A stretch of 22,284 bases of DNA, counting the filler, from Bradymonadales bacterium (lineage in GTDB: Bacteria > Bdellovibrionota > UBA2394), in NCBI GenBank assembly GCA_007693605.1. It is 2 parts of 2 records of this genome, joined end to end, with 100 filler letters (N's around TTAATTAATTAA, not from the genome) between each part and the next. Parts side by side here need not be neighbours in the genome. Positions count along the whole stretch, not along the records: positions 1 to 11,735 come from REDG01000039.1; 1 more part is not named here. One strand, 5' to 3'. Within the stretch, counting starts at the first letter, position 1. Every line of letters begins with the position of its first letter. The translations under genes and the position numbers were made by a program. The notes below the pieces were generated by a model. The model was not told the DNA's origin. It searched no databases and saw only the letters and a program-made list of their open reading frames with translations. This document shows, piece by piece, positions 2,227 to 11,735 of this stretch.

Positions 2227-3480
2227 GTGGATCATGTTTCGATTTTTCTAATCAGTCTTTCCGGTCTGTTCCTTTCGGGCATTGCCGCTGAGATTCTTTT
2301 TAAGAGAACCCGTATTCCTGATGCGCTATGGCTTGTAGGGCTGGGGATTTTGATCGGACCCATCTTTAACTTGGTTTCTTCTGATTTTTTGGAGAAGCTT
2401 CTGCCCTTTTTTGCAGCCTTTGCATTGATTGTGATTTTATTTGAAGGGGGGCGACAGCTGAGTCTGAGAAGTCTGAAGTCAACCGTGGGGCGTGCGACCC
2501 TTCTGGGTGTTCTCAGCTTTGGGGTGTCTGGCTTTGCGGCCGCTTTGTTTTCTTGGCTCGGTGTGCTGATTGGGGTTTTACAGGATTGGACCTGGCTCAA
2601 AGCCGGAATGTTTGGAGCCATTGTCGGGGGCTCTAGTTCTATCATCATCATTCCCACCATGCAGATCGGGCAGGTCAAAGAAGATGTGGCGAATCTGGTC
2701 ACAGTAGAGTCCGCGGTGACGGACGCCTTTTGTGTGGTCTTGGCCTTTGTGTTCTTGCAGATGGTCTTATTCTCGGGGCAGGCGGATCTCAACTCTTCAT
2801 CGGATGGGGCCGTGCGGCTTTTAGAAAGTGTTGGCTTTGGTGTCGTGTTAGGCGGCTTGGCGGGTTTTTTCTGGGTTTTTATTTTGCCATGGATTCCTTC
2901 TTCTTACAGTTATTTGATTACACTTTCGGCTCTCTTTGGATTCTATGTTCTGGTGCAAGAACTTGGAGGCAGCGCGGCTTTGGCGATTCTGATTTTTGCC
3001 GTTATTGTTGGGAATGCCGGCATTATTGGTCGCTTGAGTAAGTTGCAGGGCAGACGACTGATTGGGGATGAGGTCGGAATCGTGCATTTGCAGTTGTCCT
3101 TTGTGGTGAAGGTTTTTTTCTTTGTGATCGTGGGGGCTTTGTTGAGGCCGCCCTTTCTGCCGATGCTTTTCGGAATCTTATTGGCGGGAGTTTTGGTGGG
3201 AGTTCGACCCTTGGCAGTTCGCTGGGGTTTGATGAAGTCAGACTTCAGCCAGGATGATCGAAAAATGATCAATATTTGCGCTCCCCGAGGCTTGGCTGCC
3301 GGGGTCTTGGCTACTCTTCCGCTGACGCAAGGCGTAAGCGGCGTGGACGATCTTTCCACCATCGTTTTTGCCGTCATCGTGACGACGATTGTGGTCTTTG
3401 CGGTGTTTTTTCGGAAGCTTCAGGTTTCCATACCACCCAGCCCAGAAACCTCAGTGGGGATCGAGAATAACGGCGCCTGA
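2227..3480 (+). CDS. Cation:proton antiporter, CPA1/NhaP type
   Basis: 417 aa with many TM segments. Contains RIPD..WL..LGILIGP, ILFEGG, ESAVTD and PRGLAAGVLA. GTG start. Confidence 0.9.
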   Translation: MDHVSIFLISLSGLFLSGIAAEILFKRTRIPDALWLVGLGILIGPIFNLVSSDFLEKLLPFFAAFALIVILFEGGRQLSLRSLKSTVGRATLLGVLSFGVSGFAAALFSWLGVLIGVLQDWTWLKAGMFGAIVGGSSSIIIIPTMQIGQVKEDVANLVTVESAVTDAFCVVLAFVFLQMVLFSGQADLNSSSDGAVRLLESVGFGVVLGGLAGFFWVFILPWIPSSYSYLITLSALFGFYVLVQELGGSAALAILIFAVIVGNAGIIGRLSKLQGRRLIGDEVGIVHLQLSFVVKVFFFVIVGALLRPPFLPMLFGILLAGVLVGVRPLAVRWGLMKSDFSQDDRKMINICAPRGLAAGVLATLPLTQGVSGVDDLSTIVFAVIVTTIVVFAVFFRKLQVSIPPSPETSVGIENNGA

Positions 3481-3846
3481 TTTATGGAGTCGCTTGACGA
3501 GATTGAGAAGGGCAAGAATCTGAGGGTCTGACTTATCCACGAATTCAACCCCGTAGTAGACTTTTTCGAGGCCTCCTTGAGATTGGCAAAGGCTGTAGAG
3601 AAGGTCGGCTTCAATGCTCAAGTAAGCCGGATCCATTTCGGGGGAGTAAAAGTGACAATGAATTCGAGCCGGTGGGCTGAGTTCTTTGGCTTCGACGCTA
3701 CTCCAAAAGCCCGCCCCGCCCCGACCAAAGGTGACGAGTTGAAAGCTCGGCCTCAGAGGCCCAATGCTTCCTTTAAAAAGCTCGGGATCTTGAATCCGAT
3801 ACCGAACGAACTTTCTCTTAAAGCGAAAAGCAAATGGATGCATCAC
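3451..3846 (-). CDS. Stand-alone PilZ-like domain protein
   Basis: Has RKFVR (RxxxR), then TFGRGGAGF at the position of [DN]xSxxG, and a C-terminal YYGVEF. An SD-like GGAG lies upstream. Its 3' end overlaps the antiporter by 30 nt. Confidence 0.65.
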   Translation of the reverse strand: MMHPFAFRFKRKFVRYRIQDPELFKGSIGPLRPSFQLVTFGRGGAGFWSSVEAKELSPPARIHCHFYSPEMDPAYLSIEADLLYSLCQSQGGLEKVYYGVEFVDKSDPQILALLNLVKRLHKSGAVILDPH

Positions 3847-3949: not shown

Positions 3950-4843
3950 CTATTTGCTTCCCTTGGAACAGGCCCTCAGGACTGCCCGAAGAGCAGCGTC
4001 CTGTTGAGCTTTACTTGTCGACGGCCTAAAAGCAATCCCAATGGGTTCCCTAATATCAGGAGGCAATGCACTGAGGATTGCTTCAGTCCCTCCAAGAAAG
4101 ACGGCCTCGAAAAGATTGTCGAAGGCTTCATCAAGTGCCATTAGCTGCGATTCTAGGTGCATAATGGCAAATCGAGCTTCGATGAATCGAGAAAGAGAAA
4201 TGGGTTTCCCTTTGATTTGAGCCATAAGAAGCTTGTGCTGTTCTAAAATCTTGTCACGAGCTTTCTTGTACTGATCGAGGCTCTCTCCTAAAGCCACGAG
4301 ATATGTTTCGTTGAAATCGTTCGTTGAGTTTTCTGAAGCGCTCACCTGAATTCTTGTGACGAGCCTATGCTGCTGGGTCTCGGCAAAGACCCAGCCGCCC
4401 GAGATTCTTCCATCCACAAATACGGTCTCTGAAACTGGGAGCTGATCTATGTATCTAGCGGCTGCCTTCTGAAAAAGCTTAATCGTCACGCCAGCCGTAG
4501 CAGCCGCAGTACCGACTCCAAGCATGAAGGCTAACTCGGGTAAAGCGCTTGCTGCTGATGCATTCGGCATCGTATTCACAACCGTATAGGCCCCCAAGGA
4601 TGGCAGCCCGATCAGCCAGCCCACCAGCACCGTGTTGAACAGCTCGTTTTGAGAGAGTGCATCCGTAATCCGGCCTTCGATCTCCGCGCGATCTGACACT
4701 GAGCTCTGACTAGGCATGGCTTCAGCATCCGAACTATGCGTCTCTGCAACAAGTTCTGAACTTAAGGGCTGGAGGATCAAACTCAGCAACAGGACAGGAG
4801 AACCGACTAGCGCTAAGCAATTTCGTTTAAAGAAACGATGCAT
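3950..4843 (-). CDS. Hypothetical exported protein with two internal hydrophobic segments and a C-terminal AVLRAC motif
   Basis: GGAGGA (4860-4855) precedes ATG 4843, giving 297 aa. The N-terminus is signal-peptide-like (MHRFFKRNCLALVGSPVLLLSLIL). No family recognised. Confidence 0.8.
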   Translation of the reverse strand: MHRFFKRNCLALVGSPVLLLSLILQPLSSELVAETHSSDAEAMPSQSSVSDRAEIEGRITDALSQNELFNTVLVGWLIGLPSLGAYTVVNTMPNASAASALPELAFMLGVGTAAATAGVTIKLFQKAAARYIDQLPVSETVFVDGRISGGWVFAETQQHRLVTRIQVSASENSTNDFNETYLVALGESLDQYKKARDKILEQHKLLMAQIKGKPISLSRFIEARFAIMHLESQLMALDEAFDNLFEAVFLGGTEAILSALPPDIREPIGIAFRPSTSKAQQDAALRAVLRACSKGSK

Positions 4844-4848
4844 TCTGT

Positions 4849-5541
4849 TTAACTTCCTCCAATACATGCATTAACCATAGCGGCGACGGCTGAGTTTTTC
4901 TTTTGAGTGGGTTGGGAAGCATGAACGGCCCCTTCGGCTTGAGTTCGCATACCAGACTGCATGAACTTAAACTCCAACAGTGCCCTGAACTCCATGTGTG
5001 CCTTAAACTCCATCAATGCCTTAAGCTCTGAGTTGAGCTGCTCATACTGTTTGGTGGCTTTGGGGGAGGTCGTCGAGCGTAAAGCGTGATGACCTTCAAT
5101 CTTGGCAAGATCCATTTCATAGGAGACTCGAATGCGCTTTTCAAGTTGCATTGCCCGCTCATCAAAGGTGGGTTTGTCCACTTCACCGGCACTAAACTCG
5201 TTGAATAAGTTTTTGATCTCAGATCTAAACTCTCTGCTTTTTCGCCAGGCCTTTGTCGGATTGTTTCTAACAAATATTCCCGGCGCCACGACTGGACCAT
5301 CTCGGAGCCTAAGGTAAAGATCTGGAGCTTCAAAGAATAACCAGTACGAAAGGTGTATTGACGCATAGCCTATAGCTAGGCCTGTTGTTAGGACAATGAT
5401 ATCCGCGACGAATGCTTCCGCTTCTCCGCCCTGTGCGAAGGCCTCTTCGCTTGTAAAGGCAAAGCTCAGCGCCAAACAAAACGATAAGGCCCATGGCATC
5501 CATTTTTTTCGATGAAACTTCGCGATAGACTGAAACAACAC
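4849..5541 (-). CDS. Hypothetical exported protein with one hydrophobic segment and a C-terminal AMVNAC motif
   Basis: GAGGAG (5554-5549) lies 7 nt before GTG 5541, giving 230 aa (the ORF track starts at 5556). The signal peptide ends in AFA|Q. Confidence 0.8.
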   Translation of the reverse strand: MLFQSIAKFHRKKWMPWALSFCLALSFAFTSEEAFAQGGEAEAFVADIIVLTTGLAIGYASIHLSYWLFFEAPDLYLRLRDGPVVAPGIFVRNNPTKAWRKSREFRSEIKNLFNEFSAGEVDKPTFDERAMQLEKRIRVSYEMDLAKIEGHHALRSTTSPKATKQYEQLNSELKALMEFKAHMEFRALLEFKFMQSGMRTQAEGAVHASQPTQKKNSAVAAMVNACIGGS

Positions 5542-5579
5542 AAGAGATCTCCTCAAACTTAAAGCTTCCTTTGAAGGCC

Positions 5580-5596
5580 TGCAAAGAATACGCCAA
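5580..5596 (-). promoter_or_regulatory. Sigma-54 -24/-12 promoter
   Basis: The minus strand reads TTGGCGTATTCTTTGCA, with exact GG-N10-GC spacing, about 40 nt upstream of the start codon. Confidence 0.75.
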
Positions 5597-5609
5597 GAAA
5601 GAGGATTCT

Positions 5610-5622
5610 TAAGTTATTGATT
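5610..5622 (-). promoter_or_regulatory. IHF binding site
   Basis: The minus strand reads AATCAATAACTTA, an exact match to WATCAANNNNTTR, just upstream of the sigma-54 site. Confidence 0.65.
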
Positions 5623-5848
5623 ATATTAGAAGTTCAGTCCCATGCCCCTCAGAAATGCGACATCCATTGCCTCAATTTAGGTTCATTGATGGGAGCCCCC
5701 CTCCCCTCCGACCGGCCCCGCTCTGATCGAGCAGATCTCAGTCTCGCAACGGCAGTAGACATCATATTTTGGGGTTAGGGTGTTATGCGGAAGGTCCTTC
5801 GCTCTGACTCAGGCGAGGTTCGGGGGTGTGTGCAGTCTGTCGAGAGTC

Positions 5849-8800
5849 TCAGTCCTGATTGTGATTGTAGGGGCTGGAGTCGCCTTGCTGCTCCTGAGTC
5901 CAATAGCCTCTCTGATCTACTTGACCCTCAATTGTGCGGTGTGAAGCCGAACTTGCATCTGGGGCTCGGACAGCGGTGGAAGCGCCCAAAATGACAGCGC
6001 CTAAAGTTAGCTTTGGTGCTGCCTTGGCGGCGTCAAAAGGATGAAATCGAGAGCGATAGGCACCAGCTTGGCCCTCGATGAAGCGAACATCTCCGACATC
6101 CATCAAGTACGAGAGCACCGTAAGGGCGGCCCCCATGAATTCTTGAAAGTTTGTCGTCGCCACGGCCATATCCATATATTCCGACAGACCAGAGGAGGCC
6201 TCGAAGATATTGATGGTTTGACTAAACATTTGGCCGCCATGATCAGCTCGCATTAAAGCGACTCTTTGATCTCTGGTTAAAAATCTTGCTTGTGATTCCG
6301 TTGGGTAGGCTCGACCCGTCGCCGAACGGTAGCTCGCTCTTGCAATCGCCTGCCCACTAAGACTCATTGCGGCGGTATAAAACATACTATTTCCAGCCCC
6401 AACCAAGGTGTCAAAGGCGACATTCAGCCAGCGAATGATTCGATTCTCCTTGCTGGCAGCGTAAAGCTCGTAGCCTAATGTGGCAGCTCCGCTCATCGCG
6501 AAATTGAAGACGATCATATTGGCGGCAGCGATTCCATAGCCCAGATTCAGCGCCGCCGTTTGCGATCCGGCAAATCTAACTCCTATGGGCCTAAAGAGGT
6601 TCCGTTCCAAAAGGGCGGTCCCTCTGGCCTGCGCTTGACTGGCAGAGCCCATTTTCAACATCGCTGCTGACATGATGGCGAGTTTTGAAACGGCAAAGAA
6701 GGTTGAACTCAAAACCGCGGTGACCTCATCGTCTGTGATCCCCCCGTTGGTTAATAGCCTCCAGTTTTCTTGAACGATTCGATCAAGACCCTGCATTTTC
6801 ATCTCATAGAGTTCGAATTCGTTCAGGACGCCGTAGTGGTGAAGCTGATAAGCGGTTTCGATATCAACTAAGAGCTCCAAGGGTACTTCCATCACTAAAC
6901 CAAAGCCCGGCAAGATAGAGCTCTTAATCATGAACGAGATAAAGGAAAGGGGTTCTGCGAAGCGACCCGGTGGGGTCCAACCAAAAACTGAGTTCTTCAC
7001 AAGGGGTTTAAGGTCGTCATGAAGCGAGCCCCCCCAATGCTCATTCGCCGTTGTCCTAATCCAGTTGTAGTAGTCGAGCCCCCAGTCTCTTCTTTGGCCG
7101 GTGATCATCTCGGCCCACTGCCCAGCGGCGAGCGGAAACAGTGCGGCCGTATGATGAAGGCCTTCGCCCATCTTGGCTAAGCCATAACCTACTTTAACGG
7201 CCTTCTCTCCCGCATAGGTCCACAAACCTTCATCGGTAACGATTCTAAAACTCTCGATCACTACTTCGTGAGGAAGCATCACATATCGCCTCCAACCTTG
7301 GCGATTGTTTCTGCGGGTGAGCGTCCTCTCCAAAAATTCTTGCAAGTAATTGGTCTCTGTCTTCGTTTCAGCCATCGCCCGCCTAATTTCGGCCTCTCGA
7401 GTCGAGAGAAAAGCTTCGGCCACCTCTTTCATTAGGCCTTGTCGGTATTCATAAAGTTCATTTCGTAGGCGTGCTTGAACTTCTTCGGGGTACTGACTCA
7501 AAATCCGATGCAGCTGGAGCTCAAGCGGCCTTCTTCTGAGATTCTCAAATTCATCTTGTTTTTGAAGTTGTTCGTAGGCGATTGTGAGATCTCGATTGGC
7601 TTCCTGCAATTCATTCATTTGAAGGCTCAGAACCCTTTGAGATTGTTCAGCCTGAAGCAACCCATTTAAAACTCCATGGGCGACTGATAGAAAGTGGTTA
7701 TCTATGAAGCCTTCAGATTGAATTTCAATCTCGAGCCCTTCTCTTTTGAGTAGCTCATGCCAGGCTTCAATCTCGTCGAGCACGGCCTGCCAAGTCATTT
7801 CACCTCCTTGAATTTTAGAAGTAATCGCTTGTTGGATTGCCAAGGTCATCAGTTGGACTTCCACTTCCTGATGGGCTTTCTCAGCTTCAGCTCTTTCATT
7901 TTCATTTCGAAAGAAGCTCCAGACCTCATTTCTAAGTTGAGATTTTAAGTCCTCTAATTCTTGGGTGATGTTTCGAAATAGATTTTGTCGATGTGCAGCA
8001 TCCTCTTCTTGAAAAATGTCCGATTGATCTTCGAAGATCGATCTGAAGTTTAAAGCGGAATTCTCCATGAATGGTCGAAGTCTTGCTACTTCCTGTGCTC
8101 TTTCTTGCTCAGCAGCAATAATGAAATCGTTAATCTGTATCAGACGGTTTTGAGAGAGCTGAGTTTGTCGTCTGATCGAGAAAAGCCATTCTGCTTCAGG
8201 GAGTGTCATGATGTCACTCAAGCTGAAGCCACCCAGCTCTTGAAACTCCTTTTGTGAGTAGGCCAATCGAAAGTCCTGCATTGAGCCCTCAAAGTCCGAC
8301 ATGAATTGCAACGCAAGCTCTCGACGGCTTTCTCGTCTTCTTGCCTCGTATCGAGCCTGCTCTCTTTCTTTCGTTGCTTTGTAGTAGAGTTCTAGTTCCT
8401 GAAGCTCGATTTGAAGCTTCTCCAGGATTCCAAGCCTTTCAACCTCTTCAAGATTCCAAGCTCCCGGCTCCCCTAGCCTACCGTTCGCCAAGAGATGCAT
8501 GACTCGTTGAATCGATAAATACTGCCGCAGATGTTGAATCACCTCTTCGCTCGCGCTAAAGCTCGAAGGCATCGTGGCTTCATTTTCTGTATCGGAATTC
8601 TGAGCGGTGAAGATGTCAAAATTCTCGATGCCAAAAGCCTCAAAGATTCTTCGAATTTCAACTTCTGCGCTTTCGAGTTGTTCATTAAGCTCATTCTGAG
8701 CACCTATTCGATCGTCCACAAAGTCTTGCCAGTCCTCAAAAAGACCTGGAAAAGAATCGAGATCTTCCGATTCTAAGGGCGTAGCGACAGCCAAAGCCTC

Positions 8801-9610
8801 AAGTTGTTGCATATAGGTGGCTGAAATAGTTTTGGCTAAGATTTCTTGAAGAATCAGCTTCAACTCAAACTCCTCAACGATGTCTCGAAGGGGGAACTCA
8901 TGAATGAGAGATGTATCCCCCGCGACTATTCTCTCCTCTTTACCGCTCATATATTGTAGGAATGCTTGTTCAAACAGACGAATTCTCTGTTGATGCCACA
9001 GATCTTTGAGAAACTCTGGGTCGATTGCTTGGTTGATTCGTTTTGATTCTACTGCCCTTTCGATGTCTTTGATCCACTCTTCCATTGTTAGGTCAAAGTC
9101 TGATTTTGTGAGCTGGCCGTCTTGGCCATCTATGAGTTGAGAAGCTCTCAGCCGTAATCGGTTGAACCTCATCGCCTGAAGAATTTGCAACTGTCGCCAA
9201 TCAGACAGATCGTTTAGAAAGGCCCACTCCAGTTCGTTACCCAGCCAAGCCCCTGTCTGAATTCGTTCTGTCAATCGCTCAAGAACAAGGCTTGGTAGGC
9301 GTCTTTCAAAGTCTTCGATTTGACGAACAAGCCTCTGTTGTTCAGTTTCACTGAGGTGCTCTGGTCGCTCGGATAAAATCTGGCGTAGGGCTTCAAGTTG
9401 AACCTGGAATCGTTCAAAATGAGGATGGTTTTCAATCGCAGGCAGCCTTGGCTCATGCTCACTCGGTAGAGAAGCCTGACTTGAGAAATTAAGTACAGAA
9501 TCTAAAGGAAAGTCTGGCTCGCAAACAGTCGCCTCTCCCCTAAAGGGGAGAACTAGGCTGATTCCAAAATAGAACAGCCATTGGCTCGTCATTTGCTTTC
9601 CACACCACAT
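5849..9610 (-). CDS. Large hypothetical exported protein (Glu/Gln-rich helical region plus Gly/Ala-rich hydrophobic C-terminal third)
   Basis: Uninterrupted 1253-aa ORF with a signal-like N-terminus (WLFYFGISLVLPFRGEA|TVC) and GAGGGA upstream. No catalytic motif recognised. Confidence 0.85.
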   Translation of the reverse strand: MWCGKQMTSQWLFYFGISLVLPFRGEATVCEPDFPLDSVLNFSSQASLPSEHEPRLPAIENHPHFERFQVQLEALRQILSERPEHLSETEQQRLVRQIEDFERRLPSLVLERLTERIQTGAWLGNELEWAFLNDLSDWRQLQILQAMRFNRLRLRASQLIDGQDGQLTKSDFDLTMEEWIKDIERAVESKRINQAIDPEFLKDLWHQQRIRLFEQAFLQYMSGKEERIVAGDTSLIHEFPLRDIVEEFELKLILQEILAKTISATYMQQLEALAVATPLESEDLDSFPGLFEDWQDFVDDRIGAQNELNEQLESAEVEIRRIFEAFGIENFDIFTAQNSDTENEATMPSSFSASEEVIQHLRQYLSIQRVMHLLANGRLGEPGAWNLEEVERLGILEKLQIELQELELYYKATKEREQARYEARRRESRRELALQFMSDFEGSMQDFRLAYSQKEFQELGGFSLSDIMTLPEAEWLFSIRRQTQLSQNRLIQINDFIIAAEQERAQEVARLRPFMENSALNFRSIFEDQSDIFQEEDAAHRQNLFRNITQELEDLKSQLRNEVWSFFRNENERAEAEKAHQEVEVQLMTLAIQQAITSKIQGGEMTWQAVLDEIEAWHELLKREGLEIEIQSEGFIDNHFLSVAHGVLNGLLQAEQSQRVLSLQMNELQEANRDLTIAYEQLQKQDEFENLRRRPLELQLHRILSQYPEEVQARLRNELYEYRQGLMKEVAEAFLSTREAEIRRAMAETKTETNYLQEFLERTLTRRNNRQGWRRYVMLPHEVVIESFRIVTDEGLWTYAGEKAVKVGYGLAKMGEGLHHTAALFPLAAGQWAEMITGQRRDWGLDYYNWIRTTANEHWGGSLHDDLKPLVKNSVFGWTPPGRFAEPLSFISFMIKSSILPGFGLVMEVPLELLVDIETAYQLHHYGVLNEFELYEMKMQGLDRIVQENWRLLTNGGITDDEVTAVLSSTFFAVSKLAIMSAAMLKMGSASQAQARGTALLERNLFRPIGVRFAGSQTAALNLGYGIAAANMIVFNFAMSGAATLGYELYAASKENRIIRWLNVAFDTLVGAGNSMFYTAAMSLSGQAIARASYRSATGRAYPTESQARFLTRDQRVALMRADHGGQMFSQTINIFEASSGLSEYMDMAVATTNFQEFMGAALTVLSYLMDVGDVRFIEGQAGAYRSRFHPFDAAKAAPKLTLGAVILGASTAVRAPDASSASHRTIEGQVDQRGYWTQEQQGDSSPYNHNQD

Positions 9611-9640
9611 TTTTTATCCCTCTGCCCGAGGGCAAAGCCT

Positions 9641-10387
9641 CTAGCCGGTTATACTTCGGTGACAATTCCTTTCAAAAAAGTCATCAATCTGGGCATCAGT
9701 GAATCCCGCTTGCTCCAAAAGGCCTGTCAGATAGATTCTCGCGATCATTGTTGATACAGCTTCAATCAAGGCCGACTGTCCTCCAGTCACCTCTACCTCG
9801 GCGTTGGCTGATACCTTGGGGTTGTCTGAATCTATAGCCACCGTGTCCACTAGCTTCAAAACGCCCGTACCCTCAACTTGAACTACAACAAGTCGCTCCG
9901 CGAGTGGAGTGCTATTCGCCCAAGCCAAAAAGGCTTCTTTTAATGAGTCCATATTGATGCCTTCAGCTTCCAGCTGAGACCTTAGGGCATCGCCAGCCTC
10001 CATAAAGTCATGGTCGTGTGCAGGGTGACCGATTGAAGCCATCAGACCAGAGAGGAATATATTGGTATCGATTTGTGCTTTGCTACGACTGGCCCTCTGG
10101 CGTTGAGTACATTGCTCCTCCTGTCTATCTGCAAGGATTTCAAGGAGAGCGTTATTCATCACCTCAACGGAAACAGCTGAGCCTGAGAAGCCCGCAGCCG
10201 GATTGTTTTCTATCACGGCCTCCCGGGCAGCATCATCTCGTTCTTTCCTCACTTCGTTATTTTTCCTCGATCCTTTAGCCTCTTGGTGCTGAGTCATACC
10301 AGCGCTAGAGCCACCCCCTCGCTGAGCCTCCAGACTCTCAAGAGCGCCGAAGCTAAAAACGATCAATCCTAAAATTAAATAACGCAT
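9641..10387 (-). CDS. Hypothetical exported acidic protein
   Basis: GAGGAGGA (10402-10395) precedes ATG 10387, giving 248 aa. The signal peptide reads MRYLILGLIVFSFGALESLEA|Q. Two Cys are present, one of them 7 residues from the C-terminus. Confidence 0.85.
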   Translation of the reverse strand: MRYLILGLIVFSFGALESLEAQRGGGSSAGMTQHQEAKGSRKNNEVRKERDDAAREAVIENNPAAGFSGSAVSVEVMNNALLEILADRQEEQCTQRQRASRSKAQIDTNIFLSGLMASIGHPAHDHDFMEAGDALRSQLEAEGINMDSLKEAFLAWANSTPLAERLVVVQVEGTGVLKLVDTVAIDSDNPKVSANAEVEVTGGQSALIEAVSTMIARIYLTGLLEQAGFTDAQIDDFFERNCHRSITG

Positions 10388-10426
10388 TCTTTGTTCCTCC
10401 TCAAAACTTGTCCGCTTCAACAAAAC

Positions 10427-10443
10427 TGCAAGTCCTGTTCCAA
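10427..10443 (-). promoter_or_regulatory. Sigma-54 -24/-12 promoter
   Basis: The minus strand reads TTGGAACAGGACTTGCA (GG-N10-GC), about 40 nt upstream of ATG 10387. Confidence 0.75.
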
Positions 10444-10908
10444 GCTTAAGGACTGGCTAGGGCTTGAAATCATTGAAGTTTTTACTGCACACGAAGGCCC
10501 CGGCTGGGACATTCGCAAAGCCTGCGCGGAATCTTTGTCGCGCTTCTGCGTAGCGAGGGCTCTGCCTGATGTCTGAATTCTTATCTCTTCAGAGGGAGGA
10601 CAGGCTAACGGTGCATCGGGCTTAAGTCGTCAGGGAGAAAGTCATCAAAGGGAAGATGGAGCTCGGCAAAATCGCTGCCTGGCTCGAGAAGCGGTGTAAG
10701 CCGATTTAGACATAAAGAAAAGCCAAAATCTTTGACGGTGTCGAAGCGACTCAGCTTCTACGCTTTGCTTTCAATTTCGTCGCCGAGAACAGGCCGGAGA
10801 GAAGGGGAAGGTCTTGGTGTGAAGATGGAAGTGGCTCGATGGGGCTGAGCAGATCGATGTTGTAGGTGATTGGCGTGCCGAGCTTCGGTACACACGGGTT
10901 GTGCCCAG

Positions 10909-11553
10909 CTAACTCTTTGATCTACAGGCCTTCATCAGAGCCTTTGTACTTCGGATTTTCTCGGCGCTTTTGATTGCCTTGAGTATCGGCTTTGCGGCAC
11001 GCATTTGCCTTTCACTGGATTCTCTCCACTTGTAATGTACGCCCAAGCCCGCAATTGGCTGATACTCCCTCACCGCGCCTAAGTGGGTCATTTCAATGCT
11101 ATTACCTTCAAGCACCTTGTTTAGCTCCCTTTTCGCCTTCTTCGTGTCAGCACCCATCTCGACCAGAAGCTGTGCAACTTCAGCCGTCCCTGAATAGAAC
11201 AGAGCCGAATGCCCGGTGAAGGGGTTTTCCTTATTGATCTTTGCCCCATGCTTTACGAGGAGCTTCACGATTTTGGCATGGCCGTTCATGGCTGCTAGAG
11301 TTAGCATGGTATGGCCCGATTTGGGATCGACGAACTTGACATTAACGCGCCCGTCTTTCAGGAGGTCTTTCACTTTCTCGACATCATTATTCCAAATGGC
11401 GTTTTGCAGTTTTCGTTCCTGCGAATTCATCAGCCAGTCACCAAATGCTTGGGATATCTCATCAACAGTTCGCAGGCCGCCACCGGCAGCGAGCTGAGCC
11501 GGAAGACTTAAAACTGAAAAGAGAATGAATGTAGATATCATTAGAATTCGCAT
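10909..11553 (-). CDS. Exported ankyrin-repeat protein with a C-terminal ALMKAC motif
   Basis: Ankyrin repeats GHTMLTLAAMNGHAKIVKLLVKHGAKIN and GHSALFYS..AEVAQLLVEMGAD follow a signal peptide. GGAGG lies 5 nt before ATG 11553, giving 214 aa. Confidence 0.9.
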   Translation of the reverse strand: MRILMISTFILFSVLSLPAQLAAGGGLRTVDEISQAFGDWLMNSQERKLQNAIWNNDVEKVKDLLKDGRVNVKFVDPKSGHTMLTLAAMNGHAKIVKLLVKHGAKINKENPFTGHSALFYSGTAEVAQLLVEMGADTKKAKRELNKVLEGNSIEMTHLGAVREYQPIAGLGVHYKWRESSERQMRAAKPILKAIKSAEKIRSTKALMKACRSKS

Positions 11554-11611: not shown

Positions 11612-11735
11612 GCCTCTGTCATTGGAGGCTAGTTCAAGCGGGGGAGGTCCCAGAGTCTGTTGAAATGTGGGTCATCTATGGCCTATTTCCCGATTCTGTT
11701 GGTCACTTAAATAAGTGTGAGCAATATCGGGAGTT

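Follow-up and report, generated by a model that had tools for sequence, protein, structure and literature searches.

Three genes on the minus strand of a 22,284-nucleotide stretch of DNA from a Bradymonadales bacterium (hereafter the window) end in similar short tails that each carry a single cysteine, and the question raised by this locus is whether such tails are a signal and, if so, of what kind. A preliminary description of the window had proposed a new Cys tag for exported proteins. The source genome (G000) comprises 2.19 Mb and is 90% complete, and the three tails all lie on the first contig of the window, as follows.

3950..4003, minus strand: reversed tag 1, ..ALRAVLRAC-SKGSK, then stop; Cys codon 3968-3970
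4849..4899, minus strand: reversed tag 2, ..AVAAMVNAC-IGGS, then stop; Cys codon 4864-4866
10909..10959, minus strand: reversed tag 3, ..STKALMKAC-RSKS, then stop; Cys codon 10924-10926

The three Cys codons (all TGT) and the stop codons were found where the preliminary description had placed them, and, as claimed, none of the three proteins has a Cys other than that of its tail once the predicted signal peptide is removed. The proteins had also been described as unrelated, and with their tails removed they showed no mutual BLAST similarity at E <= 1; nor did BLAST with the tails removed find a paralogue of any of them in the source genome. A shared DNA origin or paralogy was rejected, the tail DNA being alike at just 17 to 19 of 36 bases.

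The strict pattern A[VMLI][LVMI].AC.{2,8}$ was found in 3 of the 7,574 open reading frames of at least 60 residues in the source genome, all of them in the window, and the number expected among the 1,962 called genes was 0.04 from the internal hexamer rate and ~0.07 from 300 tail shuffles. A test independent of the pattern scored 67,525 triples of near-terminal Cys contexts, of which 7, the window triple among them, came out as high; 3 of these 7 involve paralogous pilins. Comparison of exported with cytoplasmic proteins bore out the proposed link to export, with the strict pattern in 3 of 453 signal-peptide proteins and 0 of 1,047 cytoplasmic proteins (Fisher p = 0.027), class sizes that are approximate because genes and signal peptides were called with an in-house codon model and a hydrophobicity rule or by eye, not with SignalP. 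We concluded that the tails exist as described and exceed what chance would give.

It could still be argued that Ala/Leu-rich C-terminal helices ending in Cys arise by chance or convergence and that the pattern was fitted afterwards to three neighbors, an explanation that we regard as very improbable. In its favor, whole-genome pattern counts were close to those of reversed-pattern controls, and when 20 in-frame pattern hits were retrieved from relatives, short noncoding frames accounted for 17 and a cytoplasmic enzyme for 1, the other 2 being orthologous signal-peptide proteins that end ..EALLKAC-KGNKI. Recurring A-F-L-[RK]-A-C hits presumably end a conserved cytoplasmic enzyme, and loose DNA patterns over whole genomes were discarded as too noisy. 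Part of tail 2 has another likely cause, since its GGS overlaps a putative ribosome-binding site.

4855..4860, minus strand: GGAGGA, Shine-Dalgarno-like, within the two Gly codons of tail 2; probably serves the 297-residue gene (ATG 4843) as ribosome-binding site

Against chance stand cases from outside the sample, namely, a 569-residue protein of the relative G004 and a family of 21 rows, together with a cross-family profile that puts the window's tails on top. The chance explanation is largely refuted by the conservation of Cys in that family, by the profile ranking, and by a tree test, all of which are described below.

We consider it very probable that the three tails are a selected form of a wider Cys-helix tag, the anatomy of which is one Cys plus a short predicted amphipathic helix. 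On the predicted pattern, the tag mostly stands at the mature N-terminus, usually as C-x-x-[AL]-Φ-x-x-Φ, and the window's tails are its minority, reversed form. Among the 67 signal-peptide proteins of the source genome with exactly one mature Cys, counted after the removal of lipobox-like proteins, 36 have that Cys within mature residues 1 to 28 (6.0 expected), a count that may include some signal-peptide Cys or missed lipoboxes, most listed cases being neither, and 9 have it in the last 22 residues (4.7 expected; p = 0.05). The cytoplasmic control (single-Cys n = 119) gave 24 N-terminal and 10 C-terminal cases (16.5 and 13.0 expected). Strong hydrophobes were found at +4/+7 of Cys at frequencies of 0.55/0.52 for N-terminal and 0.57/0.47 for C-terminal Cys, compared with 0.26-0.28 for internal Cys. 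The enrichment extended to relatives, with 20 N-terminal and 16 C-terminal cases among 59 proteins (5.7 and 4.5 expected) in four genomes of the same family (1.2 Mb sampled) and 10 N-terminal and 1 C-terminal case among 20 (2.0 and 1.6 expected) in seven genomes of other families (0.8 Mb sampled), cytoplasmic controls being flat in these samples.

Coupling of the tag to a signal peptide was also seen within a single protein family. An ATP-grasp set comprised 26 rows from the best 25 loci (47 of 151 genomes matched), and its signal peptides were assigned by eye. Each of the 19 rows that have one, drawn from nine families, carries a Cys between the signal peptide and the core, and the N-terminal extension is absent from all 7 rows that lack a signal peptide, although in 2 of these the first core strand contains a Cys. 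The proposal of a new Cys tag on exported proteins therefore held insofar as the tag is portable and enriched in signal-peptide proteins, and it did not hold insofar as a stand-alone C-terminal motif was meant. The Ala before Cys is present in all three of the window's tails and is not required in relatives.

That the tails are the tag read backwards was supported by a forward matrix built from 48 rule-picked N-terminal candidates, none of them from the three window proteins. Read backwards, this matrix ranked the three tails within the highest 0.3%, 5.6%, and 0.1% of 5,203 Cys; read forwards, it gave them scores of -3.2, -6.4, and -6.6, and they have no C-x3-L after the Cys. Backwards reading outscored a same-direction shift (“Cys moved 8 residues along”) in five of six reversed tails, with one tie. 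The tag pattern is nearly palindromic about the +4 hydrophobic residue, so that moving the Cys to the other end of the helix reverses the tag. Because any amphipathic helix scores somewhat on the backwards matrix, cases from outside were needed. One is the G004 signal-peptide protein of 569 residues, which ends ..KALIKAC-KK, has its sole mature Cys there, and is an orphan (among 151 genomes its one match was itself).

The other is the protein ending ..EALLKAC-KGNKI, which has homologues in 9 of 201 genomes (20 library hits). Homologue searches with the three window proteins returned only the queries themselves or only ankyrin repeats, and as these proteins are orphans, conservation of the Cys was judged on this second tail-bearing family, which is unrelated to them. 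It comprises 21 rows, being the protein and its homologues after two HEAT-repeat proteins were dropped, mostly at 24 to 33% identity to the query. The Cys, whose conservation had been named as a check on the proposal, is kept in all 21, always within the last 23 residues, and is the sole mature Cys in 18. Ten of the tails are reversed and 11 are forward, two of these assignments (P0014 and P0021) being loose. In a tree built after removal of the termini, well-supported branches require two or more changes of form, and a single clade of forward tails was rejected (p-AU 1e-8, 19 rows), the groups having been defined by tail sequence after the first tree had been seen. Opposite forms occur in two genomes of one genus. 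A profile of eight reversed tails of this family ranked the window's tails 1, 2, and 3 among the 123 source-genome proteins with a Cys 1 to 7 residues from the end, and with the seed-related row left out they ranked 1, 2 (tied), and 4; the G004 tail ranked 1 of 122 in relatives by the reversed-tail profile. Thus, as far as the predicted helix pattern tells, the Cys tag is interchangeable between forward and reversed forms among homologues.

In structure models, the tail of the window's ankyrin protein is a long helix after a low-confidence linker, and that of the 21-row family is the last helix, modeled with low confidence, of a protein with a confidently modeled core (pTM 0.84). The family itself (L296:1342-2385; P0006-P0025) is exported, uncharacterized, and all-helical, with an invariant R-x-H, W, and G. 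Foldseek gave no hit for its fold at E <= 0.001, the best Z was 4.5, and Atlas gave no usable hit, a lack of structural match that does not make the fold new.

By its predicted anatomy, the tag is not a CaaX, lipobox, or tripartite Cys-CTERM signal. In the CaaX prenylation box, the Cys is fourth from the end and is followed by two aliphatic residues; the tag shares a Cys near the C-terminus but has 1 to 7 residues after it, mostly basic or small, and the window's tails (SKGSK, IGGS, and RSKS after the Cys) agree with the earlier statement that they are not CaaX boxes. Bacterial lipoproteins are processed at a lipobox by the Lgt/LspA/Lnt pathway. The N-terminal form of the tag shares with them a signal peptide closely before the Cys, which lies, however, at a variable distance past a signal-peptidase-I-like site and not at +1, and the tag also occurs at the C-terminus, where all three of the window's Cys stand, outside any lipobox [LVI][ASTVI][GAS]C with Cys at +1. 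The closest comparison is with MYXO-CTERM-type signals, the tripartite Cys-CTERM definitions being taken from 10.1101/2023.06.07.544157 and PMC11980579. Both signals are short, portable, terminal, and built around an invariant Cys, both mark dozens of exported but unrelated proteins of one lineage, and both occur together with type II secretion. Unlike MYXO-CTERM, however, the window's tags have no membrane helix or Arg cluster past the Cys and have basic residues directly after it. As had been claimed, no transmembrane helix follows the motif, there being 4 or 5 residues after the Cys and a maximal 17-residue hydropathy over the last 40 residues of 0.01, 0.43, and 0.04. The tag further differs in standing at either terminus and in either direction, and a linked sorting protease was not found. 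TIGR03901 had no match in the source genome in a search that had no working positive control, and no such model was found on 10 proteins; one Rce1-like gene, relevant to the question of a CPBP protease, lies on another contig of the source genome.

Tagged genes cluster, and the window holds five in a row with forward and reversed tags mixed. This minus-strand run (3950-11553), each product of which has a predicted signal peptide, and the junction in the window are set out below.

3950..4843, minus strand: orphan gene 1, 297 residues; likely start 4843; predicted signal peptide; reversed Cys-helix tail
4849..5541, minus strand: orphan gene 2, ~230 residues; possible starts 5556, 5541, and 5499; signal peptide predicted; extra hydrophobic stretch; reversed tail
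5849..9610, minus strand: 1,253-residue protein; predicted signal peptide; sole mature Cys (9521-9523) directly after it
9641..10387, minus strand: 248-residue orphan; predicted signal peptide; forward-type tail C-H-R-S-I-T-G, then stop; Cys 9662-9664
10909..11553, minus strand: ankyrin-repeat protein, 214 residues; likely start 11553; predicted signal peptide; reversed tag at the end of a long predicted C-terminal helix
11736-11835: spacer of N's with the linker TTAATTAATTAA, joining contigs C73 and C79; for the right half, adjacency to the tails is not implied

A family search with the products of the run found nothing beyond ankyrin repeats; the 297-residue protein had no homologue and no Pfam or NCBIfam family, and the 248-residue protein had homologues in 0 of 5 genomes. 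The latter has a second Cys at 10109-10111, so an internal disulfide is possible. In the 1,253-residue protein, C-E-P-D-F at the mature N-terminus is a weak candidate for an N-terminal tag. The N-terminal half of this protein is charged and helical, the C-terminal half forms Gly/Ala-rich hydrophobic helices, and weak homologues of residues 974-1177 were found in 2 of 13 genomes of the family; on these features it is a possible pore or translocator. Ten other ankyrin proteins lack the tail, and one of them has an N-terminal forward tag. Elsewhere in the window, a BrnT toxin and CopG/BrnA-like antitoxin pair lies at 170-819, a weak PilZ-domain match at 3451-3846 is directly downstream of the tagged run, and the intergenic stretches at 10571-10640 and 11680-11735 recur on other contigs of the same run and are therefore small repeats. 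The single DNA run matches the window, of which it may itself be the source.

What the tag is carried on bears on what it might do. A Pfam family was found in 11 of 61 hand-picked tagged proteins, the families being NUDIX, DUF5715, SpoVR+DUF444, PrkA AAA, AAA, SLOG, GNAT, DnaJ, ATP-grasp, HEAT, and sigma-70 region 3. Most such families are of a cytoplasmic type, needing ATP, acetyl-CoA, or cytoplasmic partners, which suggests that the tagged cargoes may be effectors acting in another cell. At one locus (L068; G000:C42:121434-132630), three large tagged signal-peptide genes adjoin, one for a PrkA-type AAA protein, one for a SpoVR+DUF444 fusion, and one for an orphan, which together we take to be an apparently exported copy of the normally cytoplasmic PrkA-YeaH-SpoVR module.

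The source genome has four secretins, eight matches to the T2SSE family of ATPases, and a type II secretion operon, and it encodes DsbA and a VKOR-DsbA fusion. The gene for the fusion stands head to head with gspC in 8 of 8 loci of the same family. At L084:2600-5228, the fusion gene and a DUF192-like gene are transcribed head to head with the type II operon in 8 of 8 same-family genomes.

Enrichment at both termini, coupling to a signal peptide, portability, and the switching of form within one family are properties of the tag that we observed. To account for them we tentatively propose, at slightly less than even confidence, that the tag may be a docking helix whose Cys would form a disulfide with a carrier, or with a part of the export apparatus, in the periplasm, and that this partner would bring the cargo to prey. 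Tagged cargo would first cross the inner membrane by Sec export, after which the helix would dock in either direction on one partner surface, the near symmetry of its pattern around the central hydrophobic residue letting it fit both ways. The DsbA/VKOR system of the cell would oxidize the thiol, so that the Cys would be held by a disulfide on the carrier or export part; type II or Tad machinery would then carry the cargo out, and the prey cytoplasm would reduce the disulfide and free cargoes that may be effectors acting there. ERp44 has a role in the thiol-mediated retention of IgM. In that system, as described in PMC11161108, the tailpiece Cys575 is likewise a free near-terminal Cys acting as a trafficking signal in an oxidizing compartment, but the system is one of eukaryotic endoplasmic reticulum quality control, with no helix reversal and no homology to the tag. 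The typhoid toxin offers a precedent by analogy, since in CdtB-PltA an enzyme is tied to its carrier through a single interchain disulfide, which undergoes reduction inside the target cell; it differs in being one fixed pair in an A2B5 toxin, as opposed to a tag on dozens of cargoes (PMC6469816). The broader form of this reading, that Bdellovibrionota mark prey-directed effectors with a universal Cys-helix handle at either end and in either direction, loaded after Sec export onto an undescribed carrier that would bring them into the prey cytoplasm, is possible, and we put it at somewhat less than even odds.

Observations of several kinds weigh against the docking-helix proposal. The C-terminal excess in the source genome alone is marginal, three of the nine cases being the window's own tails; the single genome sampled from family f10 had a terminal single Cys in 0 of 3 proteins; and cytoplasmic proteins can end likewise, as does a glutamine amidotransferase-like protein and as does the 219-residue protein that tied for rank 2 in the profile search. 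The link between VKOR-DsbA and gspC was found in 0 of 22 loci of other families and can be explained by disulfides inside type II parts (GspG). A carrier with a lineage-wide free Cys was looked for and not found, and the Cys of GspI and GspK, considered below as an acceptor of the tag, are disfavored by their distribution across families. A bare 20-residue Sec signal sent NanoLuc to the supernatant of Bdellovibrio bacteriovorus (PMC12622784), and some export can therefore do without the tag. Predation by the source family is itself inferred from its phylum, likely Bdellovibrionota, a placement drawn from GspE hits at ~50% identity, 13 of the best 20 of which bear Bdellovibrionota names. Finally, in each of the five genomes tested from the phylum, two Lgt paralogues exceed the Pfam cutoff (L391, L399, and L390-L398).

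These paralogues point to another chemistry, in which the Cys would be lipidated, either as a diacylglyceryl thioether by the second Lgt or by S-acylation, and the helix would lie on a membrane, so that cargo, resembling a lipoprotein but lacking a lipobox, would arrive at the outer leaflet, in vesicles, or at the membrane of the prey. A membrane surface would be indifferent to helix direction or terminus, basic residues are frequent after the Cys, and Cys lipidation followed by type II export is the MYXO-CTERM model (10.1101/2023.06.07.544157 and PMC11980579). However, the C-terminal tags have neither a lipobox nor an inner-membrane helix (maximal 17-residue hydropathy, 0.0-0.43), one Lgt adjoins an lspA-looking gene in three relatives, as a gene of the ordinary lipoprotein pathway would, and both Lgts of the source genome match standard Lgt models only. 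No DHHC acyltransferase was found in five genomes, in a search lacking a positive control. We judge lipidation to be unlikely, though it is the chief rival of the disulfide proposal.

The candidate acceptors in the pseudopilus are encoded in the type II operon as follows.

L084:12218-14459 (G000:C61): gspI and gspK, with a conserved single Cys in each

The Cys of GspI is conserved in 12 of 12 same-family rows and was found at that position in 0 of 18 rows of other families; that of GspK is conserved in 12 of 12 same-family rows and 0 of 10 of other families, its C-x-x-F-F context resembling a forward tag in 11 of the 12. Because the two Cys occur only together and are absent where tags persist, mutual pairing is the more likely role, and they are likely to form a family-specific intersubunit disulfide at the pseudopilus tip. 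A complex prediction of GspI with tail 3 scored 0.02 and was counted neither way.

The clustering of tagged genes, five in a row with both forms, would also suit a Cys-locked helical zipper, in which a cargo dimerizes with itself or with another tagged protein and needs no dedicated receptor. Like tags would then pair in parallel and forward with reversed tags in antiparallel, serving stability or coexport; either direction is workable, and the hydrophobes 3, 4, and 7 residues from the Cys form a coiled-coil-like face. Such a zipper leaves unexplained, however, why unrelated enzymes of widely different sizes carry the same dimer element only when exported and why the helix is so short, and we consider it improbable. 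The weight that remains outside the docking-helix proposal and the other explanations listed is left to unlisted chemistry.

We concluded that the reversible tag is, on the evidence of its sequence pattern, real, selected, and apparently undescribed, new by its anatomy, with its chemistry a proposal; no published description was found in the open literature, subscription journals and bioRxiv supplements lying outside the search. In acting at either terminus and in either direction, such a sorting signal would differ from the tripartite, lipobox, and CaaX signals with which it was compared. The selection and delivery of prey-directed proteins by Bdellovibrio-like predators are described as largely unexplored in PMC12622784 and PMC12428579. 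A short tag on dozens of orphan exported proteins per genome would offer a route to listing candidate effectors, and if the broader reading is true, sequence alone would suffice to identify the effectors of any member of the phylum.

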